Shown here piece by piece: positions 383-45,043 of a DNA stretch of 64,000 nucleotides. The position numbers and the translations under genes are program-made. Below the pieces are notes generated by a model. That model worked only from the letters and a program-made list of their open reading frames with translations, did not search any database and was not told where the DNA came from. Source of the stretch: Octopus vulgaris (taxonomy: Eukaryota); NCBI GenBank assembly GCA_951406725.2, contig OX597827.1, positions 23,684,001 through 23,748,000 on the forward strand, written 5' to 3'. Each line of letters begins with the position of its first letter. The first letter of the stretch is position 1.

Positions 383-649
383 GTTCAATATCACTTCTTT
401 ATTGTTTGTCAATTGGTTAAATATCTAACCGACAAATTGATCGTTTGTTGAATGTGCCGGTTAAATGGTTATTACTGTTGTATTTCCTCGTCATATAGAT
501 GTCAGACGAGCGGCTAACTTCGCATTATAGCTTGTTACAATTTTGTACTTCCAGACAACAATATTATACTGGGTGTATTCTAATTTCTATATTTTAGAGA
601 TGAGGAATTCTGTACATTGGATGGATATGTCCTCATCTAGTTTGTTGTA

Positions 650-695
650 ACCACAACGTTTCGGCTGATTTACTCTCCAGCCTTCATCAGGTGTC
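650..695 (-). ncRNA. Minimal type I hammerhead ribozyme (Penelope-type)
   Basis: Minus strand: GACAC-CUGAUGA-A-GGCUG gagaguaaau CAGCC-GAAAC-GUU|GUGGU. Loopless palindromic stem III (ACGU). Decayed inverted copy at 1611-1657 (+). Confidence 0.75.
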
Positions 696-1348
696 CTGAG
701 GAAATTTTGAGCCCAACCCTGGGTTCTCATTCCCAAAGTAATTTTTTTTTTGCTGGTGTTATTATTATTATTATTATTATTGAGTGAGAGAGCAGTGCAT
801 ACCATCAAAATGACATTGGGGTAAAATATACGAAGCCCAGTATACCCATCATGACTACCCGTCTGATAAGGGTACACCAGGCACATGCATCACAACTAAA
901 TGTGTGCGACATGGTGATCTCATATCAAGATAAACAGCGCATGACCTTGCAGATGGGGCCCAGTTAGAATTTTCTTCTGGTCGGGTAACCCATCCCACTC
1001 AAAAGGTCCCTGCTTAAGGGTTGTTTAAGGATGTTGAATGAAACACCCGTGTTTCCAAAGGTGAATTATTCAAACCCCAAAGAATTCCTCTCAACACATG
1101 GCTATGATGCTCCCCCACTACTTCTGCTCATGATCAGAGATGCACATATCGTCAGCCACTAAGGGACATGGTCAACTGGTTAAGGTCAAACAACTGACAA
1201 GCAAATCTGTGGTGTTGAGCAGAATATTTGCTGTAGCCCATCTTTTATACCAAGGCAAAACAATGTACATGATATCACTTCCAATCAAAGATTAGAAGCC
1301 ATGAGTAGAAGCCATGAGAGCCACTGTCTGGTACTGCATCAAAGCATA

Positions 1349-1399
<51 letters not shown>

Positions 1400-2129
1400 C
1401 ATTATTATTATCATTATTATTATTATTATCATTATTATTATTATTTTTTCAAGGCACTGCCTGGAATTGAACTCAGAATCCTGTGGTTCAATTCCGAGTT
1501 CAATTCCAGGCAGTGCCTTAAATAAATAAATAATAATAATAATAACAATAACACCAGCAAAAAAATACCTTAGGAATGAGAACCCAGGGCTGGGTTCAAA
1601 ATTCCGCCATGACACCTGATGAAGGCTTGGAGAGTAAATCAGCCGAACCATTGTGATAACAACAAACAAGATGAGAACACATGTCCATTCATTGTAAATA
1701 ATGTAAATAATGTGTTCTCATTTATTTCCTAATTTTATTCTTAGGCTCCACCGATAGTCCATTGATTGATCAATCTCGGTATTTCTATCTTTATTCATCT
1801 TTATTCATTGTCATCACTCATACATGTACACTACTGGCACAAGATATTACATGGCCATGTTGGTGGTAACTAAAGTGACATCCCCTGCCAGGTTAGTCGG
1901 GTAAGGAGAGGTGCTTTGCAATTACTTGGTTTCAGGACTACTGCTGCCACATGGCCATACTGGGGCACCACCTTGAAGGGTTTCAGTCGAACAAATCAAC
2001 CCCAGCACTTACTTTTGTTTTAAGTCTGGTAGTTATTCTATTGGTCTCTATTGTTGAACTGCTAGGTTATGGAGATGTAAAGAAATTAATACGGGTGGCC
2101 AAGCAGTGGGGGTAGAGACAAACAAACAA

Positions 2130-5815: not shown

Positions 5816-6916
5816 TTCATCATTTAATGTCTGCTTTCCTTGCTGGCATGGGTTAGACAGTTTGACTGAAAACTGGTAAGCCAGGGAGCTGCACCAGGTT
5901 CCAGTCTGATTTAGCTTCGTTTCTACAGCTCGATACCCTTCCTAATGCCAACCACTCTGAGAGTGTATCAGATGCTTTTTATGTGCCATGAACACAGGTG
6001 CTTTTATGTGCCACCATCATGGGTGCCAGTTATGTGACACCAGCATCAGCCACAACTATGATTTCACAATTCTTCTCAAGCACAGCATATTGCCAAAGGT
6101 CACGGTCACTTGTCATCACCTCGTTGAGGCCCAACATTCGAAGAACATGCTTCACCACTTCATACCATGTCTTCCTGGGTCTACCTCTTCCACAAAAAAT
6201 ATATATTAGCTACACAGGCAGTCTTAATACCGAGACGTAATATTTATCCCCACTTAAACGCAAATGTTCTGTTAGAACAGCCTATACTGTGGTAGAATAG
6301 CATGAGTGATGCTCTCTCATATTAGCTTTTGGTGCAAAATGCATTCTTATTTATATTGTTAGTGGGAAGAGATAAGTCCTCACTATCCCCAGCCCCAAGA
6401 CCACCAGATCACTTGATTTTGACCTTCCTTAGTCCTGTCAATGATGGCTGCTTGACCAAAGCTAATATGAGAGTTTCTCTTGTGGCATCTACTGCAGTAT
6501 AGTTTGTTCCTACAGAACATCCATGCTTTATATTATTTACATTATTTACATTTGATGGATATTTGTCCTCATCTTGTTTGTTGTTAACACTTGTTTGTTG
6601 TGTTAACAACAAACAAGATGAGGAGAAATATCCATCATGTAAATAATATAAATAATTCCTCATCTCTTAAATATAGAACTGTATCCATGTTTTAGCAGGG
6701 ATAAATATTATCTCATTTGTTCAAATGGTGATCAAATGTTTGTGTTGTACGTTATCTCCCTCCTGCCATCAAATCGGTGTTGTCTGATTGGTTCATGGTA
6801 TGCCACTTGTCACATGTCAAAGTGAAATGTTTTTTTTAAGAACACAAAGCACTGCTCAGTCTTGGAATGGAAACCATGACCTTAGAATCATGAGTGCAAC
6901 ATCCCAACCACCAGAC

Positions 6917-10443: not shown

Positions 10444-10598
10444 CGCATGTGTATCTATCTATCTATTTGATAAAAATGGTGAGACAAAAAAAGAAAGAGA
10501 CCCCGATATTATGTAAATAGAGGAACTTATCTGTAAATGTAATATGTGACAATTATTTTATCATGGCTACCGAATAATTGTCATATTACATTTACAGA

Positions 10599-10655
<57 letters not shown>

Positions 10656-10742
10656 CAATAATAATTCTCTACATCGACGTCACCAGACAGGCCCGACACC
10701 GTCACGGTGTCCTTAACCTGCAAAGGGAGGTAATTCCCCGAC

Positions 10743-10816
10743 GAAGCGGAAACCACACACGGACCATGGTTTCAAGGTGTATTGCCTATCGTCGGCGTGT
10801 GGTAGGCTTCCGCTTC
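10743..10816 (-). ncRNA. Type I hammerhead ribozyme, U4C core variant, long stem I
   Basis: Minus strand: GAAGCGGAA gccu ACCACACG-CCGACGA-UAGG caauaca CCUU-GAAAC-CAUG-GUC|CGUGUGUGGUUUCCGCUUC. Stem III palindrome ACCAUGGU. Confidence 0.75.
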
Positions 10817-11134
10817 CTCGACGAATCCTCACTCTGCAGGATATTCATATATAGATTTTCAAGCAAAATACATTTGCTGATTTTGAAAATCTGTTCGAAA
10901 GCAATAATAATTCTGTAAAAGAGATATAGACAGTAACTGCTCGATAACATAAGGGACTAAAGCCATCTGAATATGGCTAGGGACAGGGCAGGGTGGTGGG
11001 GGTGTTACTGTTGCATTTAGCCCCAGGCGAACATTCCGTGTGTGGTTTCCGCTTCATCGGGGAATTACCTCCCTTTGCAGGTTAAGGACACCGTGACGGT
11101 GTCGGGCCTTTCTATCTATCTATCTATCTATCTA

Positions 11135-11189
<55 letters not shown>

Positions 11190-11734
11190 TTTTACTCTTT
11201 TACTTGTTTCGGTCATTTGACTGTGGCCATGCTGAAGCACCGCCTTTATTTGAACAAATCGACCCCCAGAACTTACTCTTTGTAAACCTAGTACTTATTC
11301 TCTCGGTCTCTTTTGCCAAACCGCTAGGTTAAAGGGATGTAAACACACCAGCATCGGTTGTCAAGCGATGATGGGGACACACACAAACACGCAAACATAT
11401 TCATACGATGGGCTTCTTTAAGTTTATGTCTACCAAATCCACTCACAAGGCTTTGGTCGGCCTCAGGCTATTGTAGAAGACACTTGCCCAAGGTGCCACA
11501 CAGTGGGACTGAACCTAGAACCATATGGTTGGGAAGTGAGCTTCTTACCACACAGCCATGCCTAAAAGATTTGAGGAGTTTTCGTCAGAGTGACTCAAAC
11601 TGTTAGGTGTACAATCTGAGTGCTCAAATTGGTATGGCACTAAAATTCCAGTTTGAACTGCAGTTGAACATATGATTTTGTGACTGCCTTTCTAAAGCAC
11701 CTAGAAGTCGCTCCTCCTTGAGCCGGTAGGTATA

Positions 11735-12148
11735 GATTAAAACAGATATGAAAAGGCAAATATGGTTGGACAAGGCTTGACAAGAATATTTAATTTAGCT
11801 ATTTTATTTTTATGGAGATTTACTTGCATAGCAAGTGACCTGATCTGAGATCATGTGCTGGAACGAAAACAACTGCAGCGTGGAAGGTGTTTATAAGCCA
11901 TTTAAGAAACATGCAAAAACCGTTAGATTCACTTCAACATTTAAATTTAATTTGCCAAAATATTTTTGTTCCTTTCAGACCGCAACCTGTTCACTGACAA
12001 AATTCAGAATTTTGTCAGTGAACAGGTTTTTGTGTGTTTCTTAAATGGCTTATAAACACCTTCCATGCTGCAGCTATTTTATTATATAGTTAAATTAAAT
12101 GTTGTCAAGTCTTGCCAAACCATTTGCTTTTTCATTTCTGATTTAATC
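11735..12148. mobile_element. Nested foldback element
   Basis: Three nested inverted pairs: 11735-11802 / 12086-12148, 11873-11920 / 12026-12073, and 11985-12004 / 12008-12028. Confidence 0.65.
11951..12001 (-). ncRNA. Hammerhead-like motif with G3:C8 swap (this copy G12A)
   Basis: Minus strand: UUUGUCA-GUGAACA-G-GUUGC ggucugaaa GGAAC-AAAAAUAUUU|UGGCAAA. 7-bp stem I; stem III palindrome AAUAUU. Confidence 0.5.
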
Positions 12149-14847: not shown

Positions 14848-15225
14848 GTAGGAGTGGCTGTGTGGTAAGTAGCTTGCTTACCAACCACATGGTTCCAGGT
14901 TCAGTCCCACTATGTTGCACCTTGGGCAAGTGTCTTCTACGATAGCCTGAGGCCGACCAAAGCCCTGTGAGTGGATTTGGTAGACGGAAACTGAAAAGAA
15001 GCCCATCGTATATACGTATATAATGTTTGTGTGTCTGTGTTTGTCCCCACAACATCGCTTGACAACCGATGCTGGTGTGTTTACGTCCCCTTAACTTAGC
15101 GGTTCAGCAAAAGAAACCGATAGAATAAGTACTAGGCTTGCAAAGAATAAGTTTTGGGGTCGATTTGCTCGACTAAAAGCAGTGCTCCAGCATGGCCACA
15201 GTCAAATGACTGAAACAAGTAAAAG
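14848..15225 (+). mobile_element. tRNA-derived SINE family A (representative; many copies, e.g. 7298-7762 +, 11185-11565 -, 39783-40090 -, 35190-35575 -, 53395-53770 -)
   Basis: A/B boxes (TGGCTGTGTGGT..GGTTCAGTCCC), internal microsatellite, tail ..GACTGAAACAAGTAAAAGA. Confidence 0.85.
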
Positions 15226-15298
15226 AGTATATATGTATGTATATATACATATATATGTAGATATGTACATATATGTATGTATATATGCACATATATAT

Positions 15299-20599: not shown

Positions 20600-21013
20600 A
20601 AGCAAGTAAATATATATATATAAATATATTTTATTTAATTTTATTTGTTAGGGAATAAAAATTCTGGCATAACAGGGGTTCAAATTATTCTCAATGAGGA
20701 AATATATATTTTCATTTCGAGATAGTAGGCCCCTTCATCCCACCATATAAAAGGATTTTAATTTAAATACTTACTACTTATATCTTGGCTACACATGTTT
20801 CTTGAGATACATTTCCTGGTTCCTTAACTACGCCGTGTTTTGCTGGAACCCTTCTTAATGATTGGGATTATATTTTAAGAATGGTTCCAGCAAAACATGG
20901 CGTGGTTAAGGAACTGGGAAATGTACCTCAAGAAACACGTGTAGCCAAGATATAAGTAGTAAGTATTTAAATTAAAATCCTTTTATATGGTGGGATGAAG
21001 GGGCCTACTATCT
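20600..21013. mobile_element. Foldback element with ~135-bp inverted arms
   Basis: 20720-20858 versus ~20875-21013, plus an extra tail to the left, next to TA-rich tracts. Confidence 0.7.
20858..20950 (+). ncRNA. 5'-truncated hammerhead at the centre of a foldback
   Basis: (..)AUGA-UUGGGAUUAUAUUU...AAAUGUACCUCAA-GAAAC-ACGU-GUA|GCC. Stem III palindrome ACACGUGU. CUG and the 5' strand of stem I are lost at the inversion junction. Confidence 0.55.
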
Positions 21014-21669
21014 GTTAATGAAAGAAAATATATATAGATATGTATATATAAAAGTTTTTGTCAGTACTTTACATTCGGAAACGAAATTGTGCTTACAGGG
21101 ATTTATAAGACTTGGATGGAGTACAAATTCAAATAATAATAAAAAAAATAAAAAATAAAATATATAATAAAAATAATAAGATATCAAATGTAGGTGAACT
21201 AATATATAATAACATGAAAACCGTCCATGTGTGTGTAGATACATGTAGATACTTTTATTACTCCTTAACTCATAAACAAGCAAAAGAGCAGTTGTACTAT
21301 ATACAGAGTATTGTCTCCATTAAACACTCCCTTGTGTATATGTGTGTGTGTGTGTGTGTGTACATACATGATTAACCCAGGAAATTTAGTTGCCCTTGGA
21401 AATTGAACCTAAACTGTGGCCTTTGAACTTTCTAACTTTTCAAGCTTAAATCCCTGTTGACTGAGTCAGGATTAGTACAGACTGTAATCTTTCTTTGTCC
21501 AGGGAACAGGGGGGGGGAGCGCTCGGTAATAATTACTTCCATTTGATGTTGTGGCTGTGATTCCAGATGACTTCAACTATTCCACAGTGAACTTCTTGAA
21601 TGCCTTCCCCCTACCCCACCCTTACTGCCCCTATCATCGCATTCTGATAGATTTAATAGGATCGTGTGT

Positions 21670-23760: not shown

Positions 23761-24543
23761 CCAGCACAGATACATTTGAGTGGCACCAGCGCAGGTGCTT
23801 TTCACATGGCACCAGCACTCCTGAGCCCACAAGATTAGGACTGCTCAGCTGGAAAGGAATGCCGAGGACAACCATGGTTTCACTTAGCTTGATGCATCTA
23901 TCTAGAAAAAACATGTATAGAATCTCCTGTCTGTAATTCTTCAGACAAAGATTAAAACATAACTCCTGACTTATAATTAAGTACATGTAACATGTAATTA
24001 CTCTGCAAGTTGAATTCATAAAAAATTTCAGTCACTGCGTATAACACATTTAAAATAAAACATCTATGTACATACGCAGGCTTACTGTGAACATGCAGAT
24101 GTACTTCACAAAGATACAGCTTGGATTATATATATATATATATATAGAATGCATCATCATCATCACTTAGCTTCCACTTTCCATGCTGGCATGGGTTGGA
24201 TGGTTTGACAGAACTGGCAAGACAGGAGGCTGCACCAGGTTCCAATCTGATTTGGCAAGGTTTTTAAGCTGGATACTCTTCCTAATACCAACCACTCCAA
24301 GAGTATTAGTGTGTGCTTTTACGTGCCACCAGCATGGGAGCCAGCCAGGCAGCACTGGCATCAGTCATGCTTGAATGGTGTTTTTACATGCCACTGGTAC
24401 AGGTGCCAGTCAGGTGGCACTGGCATCAGCCATGACTATGATCTCACTTGGTTCAGCAGGTCTTACGAGTACAGCATATTGCCCAATGATTTAAGGGTGC
24501 TTTTAAACAGCCAGATATGCAACATATATATATATATATATAT

Positions 24544-24822
24544 AATTATAATTTAGGGTATCTAAGAGATACTACCACGCTGGAAATAGCAGCCCAAACT
24601 TGATTCTAAAACCACATTAAATGTTCATATAGCACATTCTTCTCTCCTGGTGCTGTATCAACATTTAATGTGTTTTTAGAGTCAAGTTTTGGCTGCTATT
24701 TCCAGCGTGGTAGTATCTCTTAGATACCCTAAATTATAATTTTAATAATAATTAACTTTGAAGGTTTTTATTCCCATGCTGACCACCTGATAAGTTTGGT
24801 ATTTAAATAATGATCTTATTCT

Positions 24823-24885: not shown

Positions 24886-26091
24886 CATCCCATAAATAAT
24901 GCACTTTTTTTACTTTTTATTTTTAAGTCTAAAAATATACTCTCCTTCATTTTCTACAATGTTCTTCCATTTATCTGGTAGACTTTGACTTTCAAGGCCT
25001 CTCTTCCAAAATTCACTTGTCCTTGATGAAAAATACTCTCCCAGTACTGTTCTGACCTTGTCTACAGAATTCATATTTTTTCTGTCCAAATGATTTTGAA
25101 GACTGCGGAATAAAAGATAATCAGATGGGGCAGTGTCCGGTAAATATGGTGGGTAGGGCATCGTTTCCCATTCACACTGCTCCAGCTTTTGGAATGTTAT
25201 CTTCGCTGTATGTGACCAAGCAATCCTGATGGAAGAAAACTATTCGTCTTGATACCAAAGATGGACGTTTTTCTTCTAGCACTGACCTGAGCTGCTCAAG
25301 CTCCTTTGTTATCATTTGATTTGGGTTTAAAAGTTCAAAGTGGACTAAACCTTTCATATCCCACCAAACAGATAACAACACCTTACATGGGTGAAGACTT
25401 TCTCTGGCCTGGGGTGCCGGTGTTTCTCTTTTCCTAACCCATTGTCTTCAGTGCTTTCACATTTTTATAGAGAACTCATATTTGATCCAAAAAAGGTTCA
25501 TTTGTGAGACATGACTGCAAAGAAAAGCACACATTCACTCTTTGCATGTGATTAGACTTAGAAAGTTTATGAGGAAGCCATTGACTCAATTTGCTGACTT
25601 TTCCGATGTCAATGAATGGCTGAATGACCAAATCCACACTTCTCTGCTAGTTCCTCAACAGTTACAATGGAATTTTTTTTTTCCACCAGGGTTTGCAGGA
25701 TGTCCTCATTGAGTTCTACAGATCTTCCAGGATGAGGCTCGTCTTCTAGGCTGTAGTTTCCGGCTTGAAATTTCTGGAACTACCATTGACACTGGCTTAC
25801 ACTTATTGTCCGATCCCCATATACTACATTAATATTCCTCACAATTTCCGTTGCATTGTTGCCTTTATTGAACTCCTAAAGCAAAATATGCCAAATATAC
25901 TCCTTTGTCACTTCCATTATAGCTTTGGAAAAATAACAGTTAAAATTGGACTGCACTCTTCAAAACTTGCACTAAGAATAAGTACAAGGTAAAATTACTA
26001 CCTGCTTTTATAGCAAGTTGATACAGGTAGTTTATCCCATCCCCCTCTGTTTATGCAATCGAAGAAACAAAATTATTTATGGGATGACCCA

Positions 26092-39712: not shown

Positions 39713-40110
39713 ATGCAAATATATGTTGCACTATATCTTCTTGGTATTTTACCTTGCCCTTGGTTTTTAATGTACTTCCTCTTTTACTCTTTTACTTGTT
39801 TCAGTCATTTGACTGTGGCCATGCTGGAACACTGCCTTTAGTTGAGTAAATCGACCCCAGGACTTATTCTTTGTAAGCCTAGTACTTATTCTATCGGTGT
39901 CTTTTGCCGAACTGCTAAGTTACAGGGACGTAAACACACCAGCATCGGTTGTCAAGCGATGTTTGGGGGACAAACACAGACACACAAGGCTATAGTAGAA
40001 GACACTTGCCCAAGGTGCCATGCAGTGGGACTGAACCCAGAACCATGTGGTTCGTAAGCAAGCTACTTACCACACAGCCACTCCTATGCCTATAAAAACG
40101 TATTTATCAC

Positions 40111-40181
40111 CTCCCCAGCGGGGAATCGAACCCCAGGCTCCCGTGTGACAGGCGGGATACTTACCACTATACTACCAAGGA
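40111..40181 (-). pseudogene. tRNA-Asp(GTC), probably a pseudogene
   Basis: Minus strand reads TCCTTGGTAGTATAGTGGTAAGTATCCCGCCTGTCACACGGGAGCCTGGGGTTCGATTCCCCGCTGGGGAG, close to metazoan tRNA-Asp. A and B boxes present, T5 terminator about 13 nt downstream. One C deleted and a C-A mismatch in the anticodon stem. Confidence 0.8.
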
Positions 40182-41861: not shown

Positions 41862-43330
41862 TTAATAATAATAATAGGCCTGAAATTCAGTGGGAGGGGA
41901 CTAGTCTATTTCATTGACCCCAGTGTTTCACTGGTACTTAATTTATCAACCCCAAAAGAATGAAAGGCAAAGTTGACCTCGGCAGAATTTGAACCCAGAA
42001 TGTAGCGACAGGCGAAATACCCCTAAGCATTTCATCCAGTGTGCTAACAATTCTGCTTGCTCACCGCCTTTCTACCAGTTCAATAATAACAACAATATTT
42101 TGTAAGAAGAATTTTTGTAATGCTTCTTTCTTCTATTTCCAGGTCAGCATTTGGACCATAATCGCCATAAATGGTAACAAAGACGAAATCAGTTTTGTCA
42201 GCAGCAAAAAGTGAACATTTGTAATATGAATTCATCCACAACAACATCAGCATCAAGAAGACGTACTTACAACATGATCAGCCGATTTGTTCCCATTAAA
42301 TCCATTAACAAACATTAAATTCACAGTAACCTCACAAACATTTAAATAACCGTTATCAAGGTCACTCATGTTCTTGTTGCCAACAAACATTAAAGCAATT
42401 ACGAAAGCTAAAAGAATTACAGAAGACTCATATTTGTTGTCATTTTAAAAGCAGGGATGGATCACCAGCAGATATATCTAATTCGGTCATATTTTGGATC
42501 TCAGTTTTCTCCGTTTCCTTCTAAAATATTTTGATGTTCATATAATCAGAGATTAACAAGGATCAATGGAAGCTCCCATGTTCTTTTTTTAAAACTCAAT
42601 TACATTCTGTTCTGTTTTATGGTGCAATTATTTAAAGGAAAGATGTCATTGGTGACCGACATTGTGTGTAGCTATACTTATGGGCGCCAAACATTAACAC
42701 TCCCTTCACAAGGGAAAACAAAATCTATTTCTAACTCCATTTGCTAAAATAATGCAAAAAATGTTTTGATGTTTTTCATATATAAAGAACTAATATATAT
42801 TTATACTCATATATTTGTATAATATATATATACATATTATATACATATATATATATACACATCTTAATTTACGTACATACAGCCATATATATATTTATGT
42901 ATATGTGTATTTGTGTATTATATCATACAGATTCATGTAGTCACATGTATTTTTCCAAAACTTACTGTTTTATAAATTTGTCTCAATCTTTTCCTAAGAC
43001 TGACCAGTTTATGAGTTAAAAAACTAAAATTATAGCAAAGAAAAAAAACGAAATGATTGTTTTATACATTTGATATATTTTAATTTGTATTTTTTTCAAC
43101 AGAGCTGTATATTTGCTGGTTCAAATATATTTTATATACAGTTTGATAGCTCTATATATATATTTTGATATATTCTTTGGCATTTCTTGTACATTTTCAT
43201 TGAAATATCAAGATAAAGTATCATTGCTTCTCAAAAGTGAGTGATTGTATTAAATAACCTTTTATCCTATCTATAGACCCACTCACCCCCGGCATCTATT
43301 TTCTTATTTGTCTATCATTTATCTGACAAA

Positions 43331-43978
43331 ATGACTAGTCCAGCCCCAGAAAACATTCCTGTTGAGCCAAAATCTCCAGCCAGGTCCAGAACTGAGAGTC
43401 TGAACACTTCTTCAAGTGTTGGCAACCTCAGATTCATCAATGATGAACTACGATCGCATGTCACCAAGTTGCGTAACCAACTAGAAGCTGAGAAGGGCAA
43501 CCTGAAGCAAGCCCATCGGCAGAAAGTTCTTGACATTAAGAATGTACGGGAACTGGAACAGAAAAAAACATTGGCAACAATCATAGAACTGAAGAAGAAA
43601 TTCCACGAAGAGAAAATCAAAGAGATAGAGAGTTTACGTGAGACAATTAGTCAGAAACTAGAATTAGAGAAGAACAAATGCCTGAAAGTGAAAGACACAG
43701 AAATGACAAAACTACGACAGGAACTGGACGTGAAGGAGAAGATGCTGAACAAGCTGTTGTCTCAGACCAACCAGAAGACGAATAATGATCAAATTAATGT
43801 AAAACTCTTGGATGAACTTAGCGAATTAAGGAGTACGAAACGACAGCTGGAAGAGTCCCTGTCGCAGGCAACAGTCATTGAGAAGCACCACAGTGAAAAT
43901 CTGAAGAAACTGTGCAGCAGTTATGAATCAGAACTGGTGAGGGTTCGAAGAGAAGCCCACATGGAGATACGCCACATG
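43331..43978 (+). CDS. First coding exon of a long coiled-coil protein, JAKMIP (Janus kinase and microtubule-interacting protein)-like
   Basis: Only long complex ORF in the window (216 codons up to the donor). E/K/L-rich heptad pattern; LRFINDELRSHVTKLRNQLEAEK resembles the JAKMIP N-terminus as recalled. Ends at a strong phase-0 donor ATG|GTAAGT (43979). Candidate upstream acceptors: ttctatttccag at 42142 and ttttttcaacag at 43102. Confidence 0.8.
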
Positions 43979-44320
43979 GTAAGTAAAAATTTCACATGAT
44001 TTATTTCATATCTTTCAATGTTTTTGTCTAAGTTCAAATCATTGGAGCACTACAAAATGTTTTCCATACTGATCATCTCTGGATCTCATCAGTTGACCAT
44101 ATATACATATATATATATAAAATATAAATATAAATGATGATGATGAAATATATATATATATATATTTATATAGTAAAAGCAATTAAGATTCAAGTCAGTT
44201 CTAATGAATTCACTTGAATGCGGTACTTAACTTAGATGCACCAGAAAACTATATGGTATTAACCATACAATAATGTGGGGTGATTATAAACGAGAAAAAA
44301 GCAACAAGAATGGATTAGTT

Positions 44321-44411
44321 TTTTAGTACAATTGTTTCATACAAAGACAAGCTTTATTAAAAGCTGCAAATATTGCAGCAAATACAAGTGTCCCGTACTC
44401 ATCAGCTAAAA
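44321..44411 (-). ncRNA. Type I hammerhead ribozyme, inverted twin of 44626-44716
   Basis: Reverse complement of the + strand copy, no differences seen by eye. Confidence 0.85.
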
Positions 44412-44625
44412 CACATATGAGTTCTCCAAACATCCTAGTGGGTGAGGCTACACTCATGAAGTATCGGAGATAGTTCTATAAAAAGCAAATTTAGGTTGTA
44501 AGCGGACTTCCAAAGTTCTTTAATGATGATGCACAGTCTTATAACAAGTTGCTTTTTATAGAACTATCTCCGATACTTCATGAGTGTAGCCTCACCCACT
44601 AGGATGTTTGGAGAACTCATATGTG

Positions 44626-44716
44626 TTTTAGCTGATGAGTACGGGACACTTGTATTTGCTGCAATATTTGCAGCTTTTAATAAAGCTTGTCTTTGTATGA
44701 AACAATTGTACTAAAA
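44626..44716 (+). ncRNA. Type I hammerhead ribozyme, canonical core, branched stem II
   Basis: UUUUAG-CUGAUGA(44632-38)-GUACGGGACA...UGUCUUUGUAU-GAAAC(44699-703)-AAUU-GUA|CUAAAA. Stem I UUUUAG/CUAAAA; stem III palindrome ACAAUUGU. Confidence 0.85.
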
Positions 44717-45043
44717 AACTAATCCATTCTTGTTGCTTTTTTCTCGTTTATATTTATATATATATAGCTTTATCTGAGCTGTAATTCTCTGGATCATGCA
44801 CCTTTTGACATATTCTTACTCATTTTGTACATATTTTGTATGATGGCTGAGTTTGGTAAATGTTCAGTGAGGTGCCATTCTTTACATTTTCTTCAACCAC
44901 ACAAAATTATACAAGTTTTGTGTAATGTAGCACATGTAATTATTTATTTGTAATGTGGTTCAAAGTGGAGTGCTACTGAAACAATTGTCACCAACATTAA
45001 ACTTACGCTGCACTGATATATTCATTTTCATCTTCATTGTTGT

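Follow-up and report, generated by a model that had tools for sequence, protein, structure and literature searches.

Non-LTR retrozymes of metazoans, in the published sections cited here, are short non-coding tandem units with one type I hammerhead, a GC content below 50% and a highly self-paired RNA; they also occur as dispersed monomers, and a Penelope helper has been proposed for them (PMC7229834; bioRxiv 10.64898/2026.07.22.740005). The cited parts of these papers report that retrozymes accumulate as circles in other animals (PMC7229834), already argue for a link between retrozymes and Penelope elements, and record that 8 of 9 Xenopus retrozyme dimers failed to cleave (bioRxiv 10.64898/2026.07.22.740005). 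The element described below has the same organization and is alike in composition, self-pairing, dispersal as a monomer and proposed helper.

A typical Penelope insertion, as far as the cited sections describe it, has three parts: an inverted copy placed head to head, a one-sided tail of 31 bp and a duplicated target (PMC3846280, PMC8557442). One preferred target is (TA)n, and the inverted junctions often contain palindromes (PMC3846280). Reverse transcription of the PAc Penelope element starts internally, 111-118 nt into the ORF, with the cut at 26; in the parts of the same report cited here, uncut RNA is the main template of the purified system, there are no RNA reads starting or ending at the cut, and cleavage mutants insert normally, making cleavage dispensable in vitro (PMC11167929). 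The role of the hammerhead in endonuclease-positive (EN+) Penelope elements is described as unclear (PMC8557442, in the part cited). For R2 elements with HDV-like ribozymes, the cited part of the literature shows that the cut site predicts 5' junctions, often with untemplated bases (PMC3774820).

The window, the whole 64-kb stretch of DNA that was analysed, is repeat-rich eukaryotic DNA, in all likelihood from an animal, with microsatellites, SINE-like repeats, a transposase fragment and an exon-like frame. The transposase fragment, at 25175-25447 on the minus strand, is of mariner type (Pfam Transposase_1, E 1.4e-17). The exon-like open frame at 43277-43999 on the plus strand has 240 codons, is coiled-coil-like and gave no Pfam or PDB match; in Atlas it resembles coiled-coil proteins of eukaryotes, at 0.89-0.92, but these belong to several families and are indecisive. 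Long palindromic MITE-like elements occur at 44285-44752, 20702-21035, 24541-24744 and 11866-12080, and a tRNA-like sequence at 40111-40181 (minus strand) is the sole Rfam match at gathering score in the window. The retrozyme insert sits in a microsatellite at the edge of a SINE-like repeat (11188-11564) to the right of the TA tract; this SINE-like repeat has many related copies in the window, for example 14849-15285 and 39780-39987. Directly left of the target tract is an AT-rich imperfect palindrome (10528-10600) with only sub-threshold miRNA-like Rfam matches. The parts of the insert are as follows; unit positions are counted from +1 = 10761, the first base 3' of the predicted cut.

10609..10654, plus strand: target tract on the left side, (TCTA)4(TA)15, probably the left one of two copies of a long target-site duplication
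10654..10684, minus strand: 31-nt one-sided tail, sense copy beyond the outer end of the arm (30 nt if 10654 belongs to the target)
10654..10670, minus strand: 17-nt terminal piece that forms the 3' end when read in RNA sense and is a copy of 10900-10916 in the same unit
10671..11030, minus strand: one complete 360-nt retrozyme unit, non-coding, 47% GC, delimited by head-to-tail joints in sequence runs
10695..10711, minus strand: 7-bp hairpin GACACCG-UGA-CGGUGUC, repeated in the inverted arm
10714..10761, minus strand: stem I, 3' strand
10761..10764, minus strand: GUC triplet and the cut between 10762 and 10761, predicted from sequence
10763..10773, minus strand: GAAA (10773-10770) together with palindromic helix III ACCAUGGU, 2 bp plus tetraloop in the monomer
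10770-10763, minus strand: palindrome ACCATGGT, followed by N17 = C at 10762
10788-10774, minus strand: helix II, with a U10.1-U11.1 mismatch, 3 bp and a 7-nt loop
10795-10789, minus strand: hammerhead catalytic core C3 C4 G5 A6 C7 G8 A9 (CCGACGA, a U4C variant), from sequence and family alleles
10796..10843, minus strand: stem I, 5' strand, with 6 bp, an internal loop and a long extension
11031..11034, minus strand: 4-nt terminal redundancy (ACAT on the plus strand, as at 10671-10674); 5' end of the sense copy, at +88 of the preceding unit
11035..11113, plus strand: inverted head-to-head arm, unit positions -2 to +77, matching 10763-10685 at 77/79 nt
11111..11186, plus strand: right target tract (TCTA)7(TA)24

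The stretch with the insert, whole or in part, is present in 20 of the 24 sequence runs listed (11 studies), with no RNA run listed among them. Four runs were examined, all assembled contigs: X1 and X6 from organism A, X12 from organism C and X20, a single contig, from organism D. X6 is possibly RNA and is not taken as evidence of transcription. For family alleles only contigs at least 80% alike were counted, and contig depth is not read as copy number. A joint leading from 11030 to 10671 is present in X1, X20 and X6 (3 of the 4 runs), and loose ends in X1 and X12 agree with it, which makes the element a head-to-tail repeat with a unit of 360 nt, present in DNA as a tandem. Because distinct family contigs number 1352 in X1 and 606 in X12, the family is multi-copy. 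Non-LTR retrozymes are recognized as multi-copy head-to-tail units, 150-450 bp long, that each contain a single type I hammerhead; all of these features are found here, and mussel retrozyme units, in the cited part of PMC7229834, are of similar size at 350-390 bp. The GC content of 47.2% is below the 50% used for retrozymes, yet above the 45% of the source paper's figure legend. With one hammerhead, this locus is a solo monomer, whereas active copies in the sense of Li et al. have at least two consecutive units. The sole frame of at least 120 codons that overlaps the unit runs through the TA repeat.

Folded as a circle, the unit is predicted to reach -125.7 kcal/mol with 63% of it paired (z -6.6, 0 of 60 shuffles as stable). 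Family variants at 10710, 10808, 10876 and 10884 preserve predicted pairs, and 10714/10843 is a possible compensatory pair, in which an A-U pair changes to its mirror pair (unphased); variants at 10688, 10834, 10899, 10948 and 10973 break pairs of the window's fold. Loose ends before 10743 in X1 and X12 belong to divergent subfamilies with other sequence beyond +19 of the cut. When metagenome, viral and prokaryote collections were scanned for the pattern, 2, 0 and 1 loci, respectively, were found; only 16-17 nt matched, and these were set aside as chance. We consider the element to be, very probably, a unit of an animal non-LTR retrozyme. It differs from the metazoan retrozymes of the cited sections in a stem I that extends to 39 bp and in its core, C3-C4 in organism A and U3-U4 in organism C as against C3-U4. 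Its inverted arm and tail were not seen in those descriptions.

Read in the RNA sense, the insert passes from the flank into the reversed arm (+77 to -2), then runs from +88 through the hammerhead to +91, skips, and ends with 17 nt before the other flank. The sense copy is 364 nt long with ACAT at both ends, which is the unit length plus 4 nt. The arm joins the sense copy bluntly and has TCT microhomology with the right (TCTA)n flank. It had originally been placed at 11035-11109; the start was right, and the end fell 4 nt short, since family letters extend the arm to 11113. The tail, measured from the sense end at +108 to the arm end at +77, is composite, with 14 contiguous nt and 17 nt from 113 nt further on; the 113 nt that separate the 17-nt piece from the unit end in a tandem are skipped. 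At the position of internal 10915, where the unit has G, the 17-nt piece has C, the family letter (99.98% of X1 depth). An intron does not account for the skip, as the stretch lacks a GT start and AG end in register that would yield the window's junction. For a shorter, 247-nt subfamily as the source of the tail, no joint was among those listed and bin 10654-10669 was uncovered, which is uninformative either way. CAT microhomology as the maker of the inner junction was rejected, as it would retain two G that are absent here.

The flanks share 48 nt, but this is microsatellite; retrozyme target duplications, when present, exceed 4 bp. Compound (TCTA)n(TA)n tracts number 3 in the window, and two of them flank this insert. 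At 10710, where 97% of X1 depth has the other letter, a minor allele is found in arm and sense copy alike, so that the two derive from the same or sibling templates. They differ at 10688 and 10742, and the arm bears the family letter at both; it was therefore not duplicated from the sense part at a later time, unless the two changes are more recent still.

This anatomy resembles EN+ Penelope insertion units, as described in the cited sections (PMC3846280, PMC8557442, PMC11167929, PMC4209133), in its adjacent inverted 5'-truncated copy, its one-sided tail (31 nt, composite, compared with a range of 30-40 nt) and its (TA)n target. The two also have in common 3' ends behind the hammerhead cut, by 77-91 nt here, and a palindromic helix III (PMC11167929, PMC4209133, in part). 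Subtraction of the figures cited for PAc places its start 85-92 nt behind the cut (PMC11167929, in part), compared with ends at +77 and +91 here. Unlike the Penelope units of those sections, the element has no ORF, a long stem I rather than the minimal hammerhead form, and a composite tail. No reverse transcriptase or GIY-YIG domain, which EN+ Penelope elements encode between pseudo-LTRs, was found among the 117 complex ORFs of at least 75 codons in the window. Insertion of the unit by a Penelope-type process is likely. In LINE-1 twin or dual priming, according to the cited part of PMC2837659, a single RNA gives rise to two fragments in opposite orientation with a small deletion between them, microhomology where the second priming occurs and a target duplication. 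The geometry of the present insert would fit this; it differs in having no poly(A), a microsatellite target and priming internal to the RNA.

The hammerhead agrees with the type I core consensus (C3 U4 G5 A6 N7 G8 A9, G12 A13 A14, A15.1-U16.1, H17) at every position save U4, and it has the three helices of the type (stem I, helix II and helix III) with stem I open. The original prediction, a minus-strand hammerhead with core CCGACGA and a GUC triplet, is borne out, with the predicted cut between 10762 and 10761, and the perfect hairpin GACACCG-TGA-CGGTGTC that it named is present at 10711-10695 and 11087-11103. Its stem I of more than 15 bp is found in the hammerhead-constrained fold, where stem I has 39 bp, but just 6 bp are contiguous with the core. 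It had overlooked the U10.1-U11.1 mismatch, the palindromic helix III, the 360-nt unit, the displaced 17-nt terminal piece and the duplicated target. Axolotl HHR_Amex2, as given in the cited part of PMC7229834, has the same U-U at helix II and the same 2-bp helix III. The 130-nt hammerhead hairpin has a z of -8.1. The monomer's hammerhead fold lies 8.8 kcal/mol above its minimum-energy fold, and two copies are predicted to form an 8-bp helix III duplex at -11.2 kcal/mol; a dimer-type design is likewise described for animal hammerheads (PMC4209133, in part), which the palindromic helix III fits. A G-U replaces one A-U pair of the 7-bp hairpin in the common allele of organism A, so that the variant at 10710 keeps pairing.

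A descriptor with a core-adjacent stem I of at least 6 bp had this hammerhead as its sole match in the 64-kb window and matched 0 of 200 dinucleotide shuffles of the window. The window has 4 further relaxed hammerhead-like matches and 10 further core-plus-helix-II matches. Rfam hammerhead families gave no match to this site, whether at gathering score or at E up to 10, and 18 weak Rfam matches that fell short of the gathering score were set aside. Standard descriptors built on C3-U4 would overlook the whole family, so that retrozyme counts may be underestimates.

Whether U4C was family-wide or a mutation private to this copy had been left undecided. Family alleles exclude a private mutation and show the change to be family-wide in organism A: C4 makes up 97.6% of contig depth in X1, with U4 in 5 contigs (2.4%), and U4 is absent from X6 (organism A) and from the one contig of X20 (organism D). 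Organism C is different, with U4 in 94% and U3 in 94% of X12 depth. The U3 and U4 rows of X1 have equal depth, 3096.5, which suggests that U3 and U4 are on the same contigs. The family would thus have C3-C4 and U3-U4 as its two cores, both a single change away from the canonical C3-U4, with phasing deduced from depth. At 10794-10795 X12 has U3-U4 and no G8 change is listed, which gives a U3-G8 wobble in place of the C3-G8 pair. According to the cited part of Perreault et al. 2011 (PMC3088659), U4C lowers hammerhead activity considerably in vitro, and a natural viroid hammerhead with U4C, cited there, is much slower in vitro and sufficient in vivo. The core change is the same in both cases, but it is a rare variant in the viroid and the dominant allele of a multi-copy genomic family here.

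The original prediction spoke of a second, unrelated family with the same boundary set by the cleavage site. We find it in the window as a minimal hammerhead at minus 690 and a pair of head-to-head arms at 6532-6678.

585..781, minus strand: copy A, with a minimal hammerhead of the Penelope type whose core runs from 690, and with a cut predicted between 655 and 654
1420-1551: fold-back palindrome at the 5' end of copy B, adjoining an (ATT)n tract
1529..1711, plus strand: copy B, core from 1616, damaged GAAA, cut equivalent between 1652 and 1653
6532..6590, minus strand: left arm of the head-to-head pair, starting exactly at +1 (6590)
6591..6599, plus strand: 9-nt filler re-copying arm positions +9 to +17, ending in GTT, which is -3 to -1 of copy A
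6600..6678, plus strand: right arm, starting at +1 (6600) or -3, with about 20 nt of extra tail

The copy A hammerhead has an extra A after A9, a G10.1-C11.1 pair and a palindromic 15.2-16.2. Its 5' end lies 127 nt upstream of the cut, and the fold-back junction of copy B about 165 nt upstream of its cut; this fold-back palindrome resembles the palindromic inverted junctions of Penelope elements (PMC3846280, in the part cited). The 6532-6678 pair may be bordered by a target duplication of 11 nt, ATCCATG and 4 further nt on either side, in which one position differs. Stem I of this family is about 3 bp, which is unlikely to stall an enzyme.

As originally predicted, the retrozyme arm starts within 2 nt of the predicted cut: its inner end is at -2, and it includes TC, the two bases 5' of the cut. 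Because these bases are absent from a cleaved RNA, either they are filler added without a template, which would give TC by chance in 1 case in 16, or the RNA that was copied had not been cut or had been religated; at the retrozyme locus alone the evidence on the boundary is about even. Family boundary statistics cover the window and 4 of the 24 runs, in which contig joints are a very sparse census of inversion junctions, with only 3 joints listed overall. The retrozyme family has two inversion-type joints in the runs, one beginning at +14 (X1) and the other at +27 (X12). Against the look-alike 5' strand of stem I, just 17/28 and 14/22 of their letters match, ungapped; given this poor match, they are counted as inversions, with doubt. 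The boundary statistics that had been proposed as a check are divided: 2 of 5 inversion events fall within 3 nt of the cut (uniform-null probability 0.004-0.007, for a tiny post-hoc sample with both cases picked for fit), and 3 of 5 fall elsewhere, at +14 (X1), +27 (X12) and about -165 (copy B). The proposal of a boundary set by the cleavage site is plausible, and is opposed by the two bases 5' of the cut and by these three events. The arms of the second family lend it support, since both sit at +1 with a re-copied filler and a stem I of only about 3 bp, as does the R2 precedent, in which ribozyme cuts set 5' junctions with untemplated additions (PMC3774820, in part). It is weakened by uncut RNA as the main Penelope template in vitro (PMC11167929, in part), by the 8 of 9 uncleaved Xenopus dimers (bioRxiv 10.64898/2026.07.22.740005, in part), by the 8.8 kcal/mol that the hammerhead fold costs in the monomer and by the low activity of U4C in vitro (PMC3088659, in part). 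R2, in the cited part, has another ribozyme and belongs to another element class, and its case is built on assays and many junctions, compared with inference from 2 events here. On these junction positions, we judge it reasonably probable that the arm end is defined by the cut.

Under the mechanism we propose, transcripts of the tandem loci would be cut slowly by their hammerhead, which is weak (C4, a basal U-U in helix II, a palindromic helix III of 2 bp) and would act mainly as a dimer; the resulting RNAs would be longer than one unit, start at a cut and retain a further, intact hammerhead. A reverse transcriptase/endonuclease of the Penelope type, provided in trans, would nick both strands of (TCTA)n(TA)n about 45 nt apart. 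Priming on the 3' side at the first nick would copy 17 nt, skip to +91 and then copy a full unit back to +88; at the other nick, priming at +77 through the TCT microhomology would be followed by extension to the RNA 5' end, the hammerhead cut. Head-to-head joining of the two cDNAs would lose 10 nt, with TC presumably added as filler. A single RNA that starts at the cut and includes the following hammerhead accommodates all the pieces in colinear order; 10 nt are missing where the orientation changes, which resembles twin priming (PMC2837659, in part). On such an RNA, with the outer end of the arm (+77) adjacent to the 5' end of the sense copy (+88) as in twin priming, the inner end of the arm is the RNA 5' end. 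This geometry and its TCT microhomology are equally compatible with two RNAs or a circle, and twin and dual priming are indistinguishable at this locus. The mechanism is weakened by the lack of a Penelope protein gene among the 117 ORFs of the window, and by the sense copy, which comes to within 4 nt of where it itself started, a feature for which one lap of a circle is an equally good explanation. For the whole chain, from retrozyme unit through Penelope-type insertion to an arm end at a ribozyme-made RNA 5' end, we put the chances slightly above even.

That lap of a circle is the core of the most serious alternative, which keeps the retrozyme and the Penelope-type insertion and changes the template to uncut or circular RNA. 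The sense cDNA would be one lap of the 360-nt circle, stopping at its own start, and the arm a 5'-truncated second copy that crosses an intact or religated cut by 2 nt, stopping at the ACCAUGGU palindrome or by chance. TC would then be templated without an extra assumption, and the alternative fits a sense copy of unit length plus 4 nt and the other joints of the retrozyme family that begin at +14 and +27. The cited sections of the literature add that palindromes are common at Penelope inverted junctions (PMC3846280), that uncut RNA is the main template in vitro (PMC11167929) and that retrozyme circles accumulate in other animals (PMC7229834). However, the alternative leaves the second-family arms at +1 (6590, 6600) as a separate coincidence, and among the 3 joints listed in the four runs none is a strand-change joint upstream of the cut. 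We regard it as a real possibility, short of probable.

An origin at the DNA level is improbable. The element would then be a satellite with a dead hammerhead remnant, and its arm would have arisen after insertion, independently of any RNA end, through a template switch or fold-back repair at the long hairpin or palindrome. The non-canonical core, the unstable microsatellite flanks and the strong self-complementarity of the region on both strands (z -8.1 and -5.4) agree with this. Yet the family letters of the arm at 10688 and 10742 do not allow it to be a later copy of the sense part unless both changes followed, the 271-nt spacer is long for a fold-back, and the tail, the duplicated target and the pair-keeping variants (10710, 10808, 10876, 10884 and possibly 10714/10843) fit an RNA-based mobile element. 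A high-copy repeat between microsatellites could also be misassembled, so that the inverted arm would be an artefact. Among the listed contig pieces none spans the whole stretch or bridges 11034/11035, a kind of gap that is uninformative; but the differences between arm and sense copy, at 2/79 sites, make phylogenetic sense, the two have a rare allele in common, the anatomy is that of described Penelope inserts and the second family has the same layout. We consider such an artefact very improbable.

Our literature search, with subscription papers mostly outside it, returned nothing on this family, on a fixed C4 retrozyme core or on inverted arms ending at a hammerhead cut; C4 cores may already appear in work on Penelope hammerhead variants. 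What is new, within the literature searched, is this family, the fixation of non-canonical cores in it and the reading of cleavage from head-to-head junctions; the retrozyme kind itself is known.

Returning to an arm end set by cleavage, a broader and still tentative proposal is that hammerhead cleavage in vivo sets the 5' end of RNAs copied by Penelope-type enzymes, with head-to-head junctions in two unrelated families as a countable DNA record of the cuts. The retrozyme cores C3-C4 and U3-U4, almost never C3-U4, might then be fixed in related organisms because they are tuned so that the first hammerhead is cut and the next survives to reverse transcription; we hold this to be possible rather than probable. 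If the boundary is a matter of chance, the remaining result is a new retrozyme family with a fixed variant core. The anatomy of the locus supports Penelope enzymes as the movers of retrozymes. If arm ends peak at the cut genome-wide, the role of Penelope hammerheads would be testable from assemblies alone, and even a U4C ribozyme would be seen to cut in the germ line.
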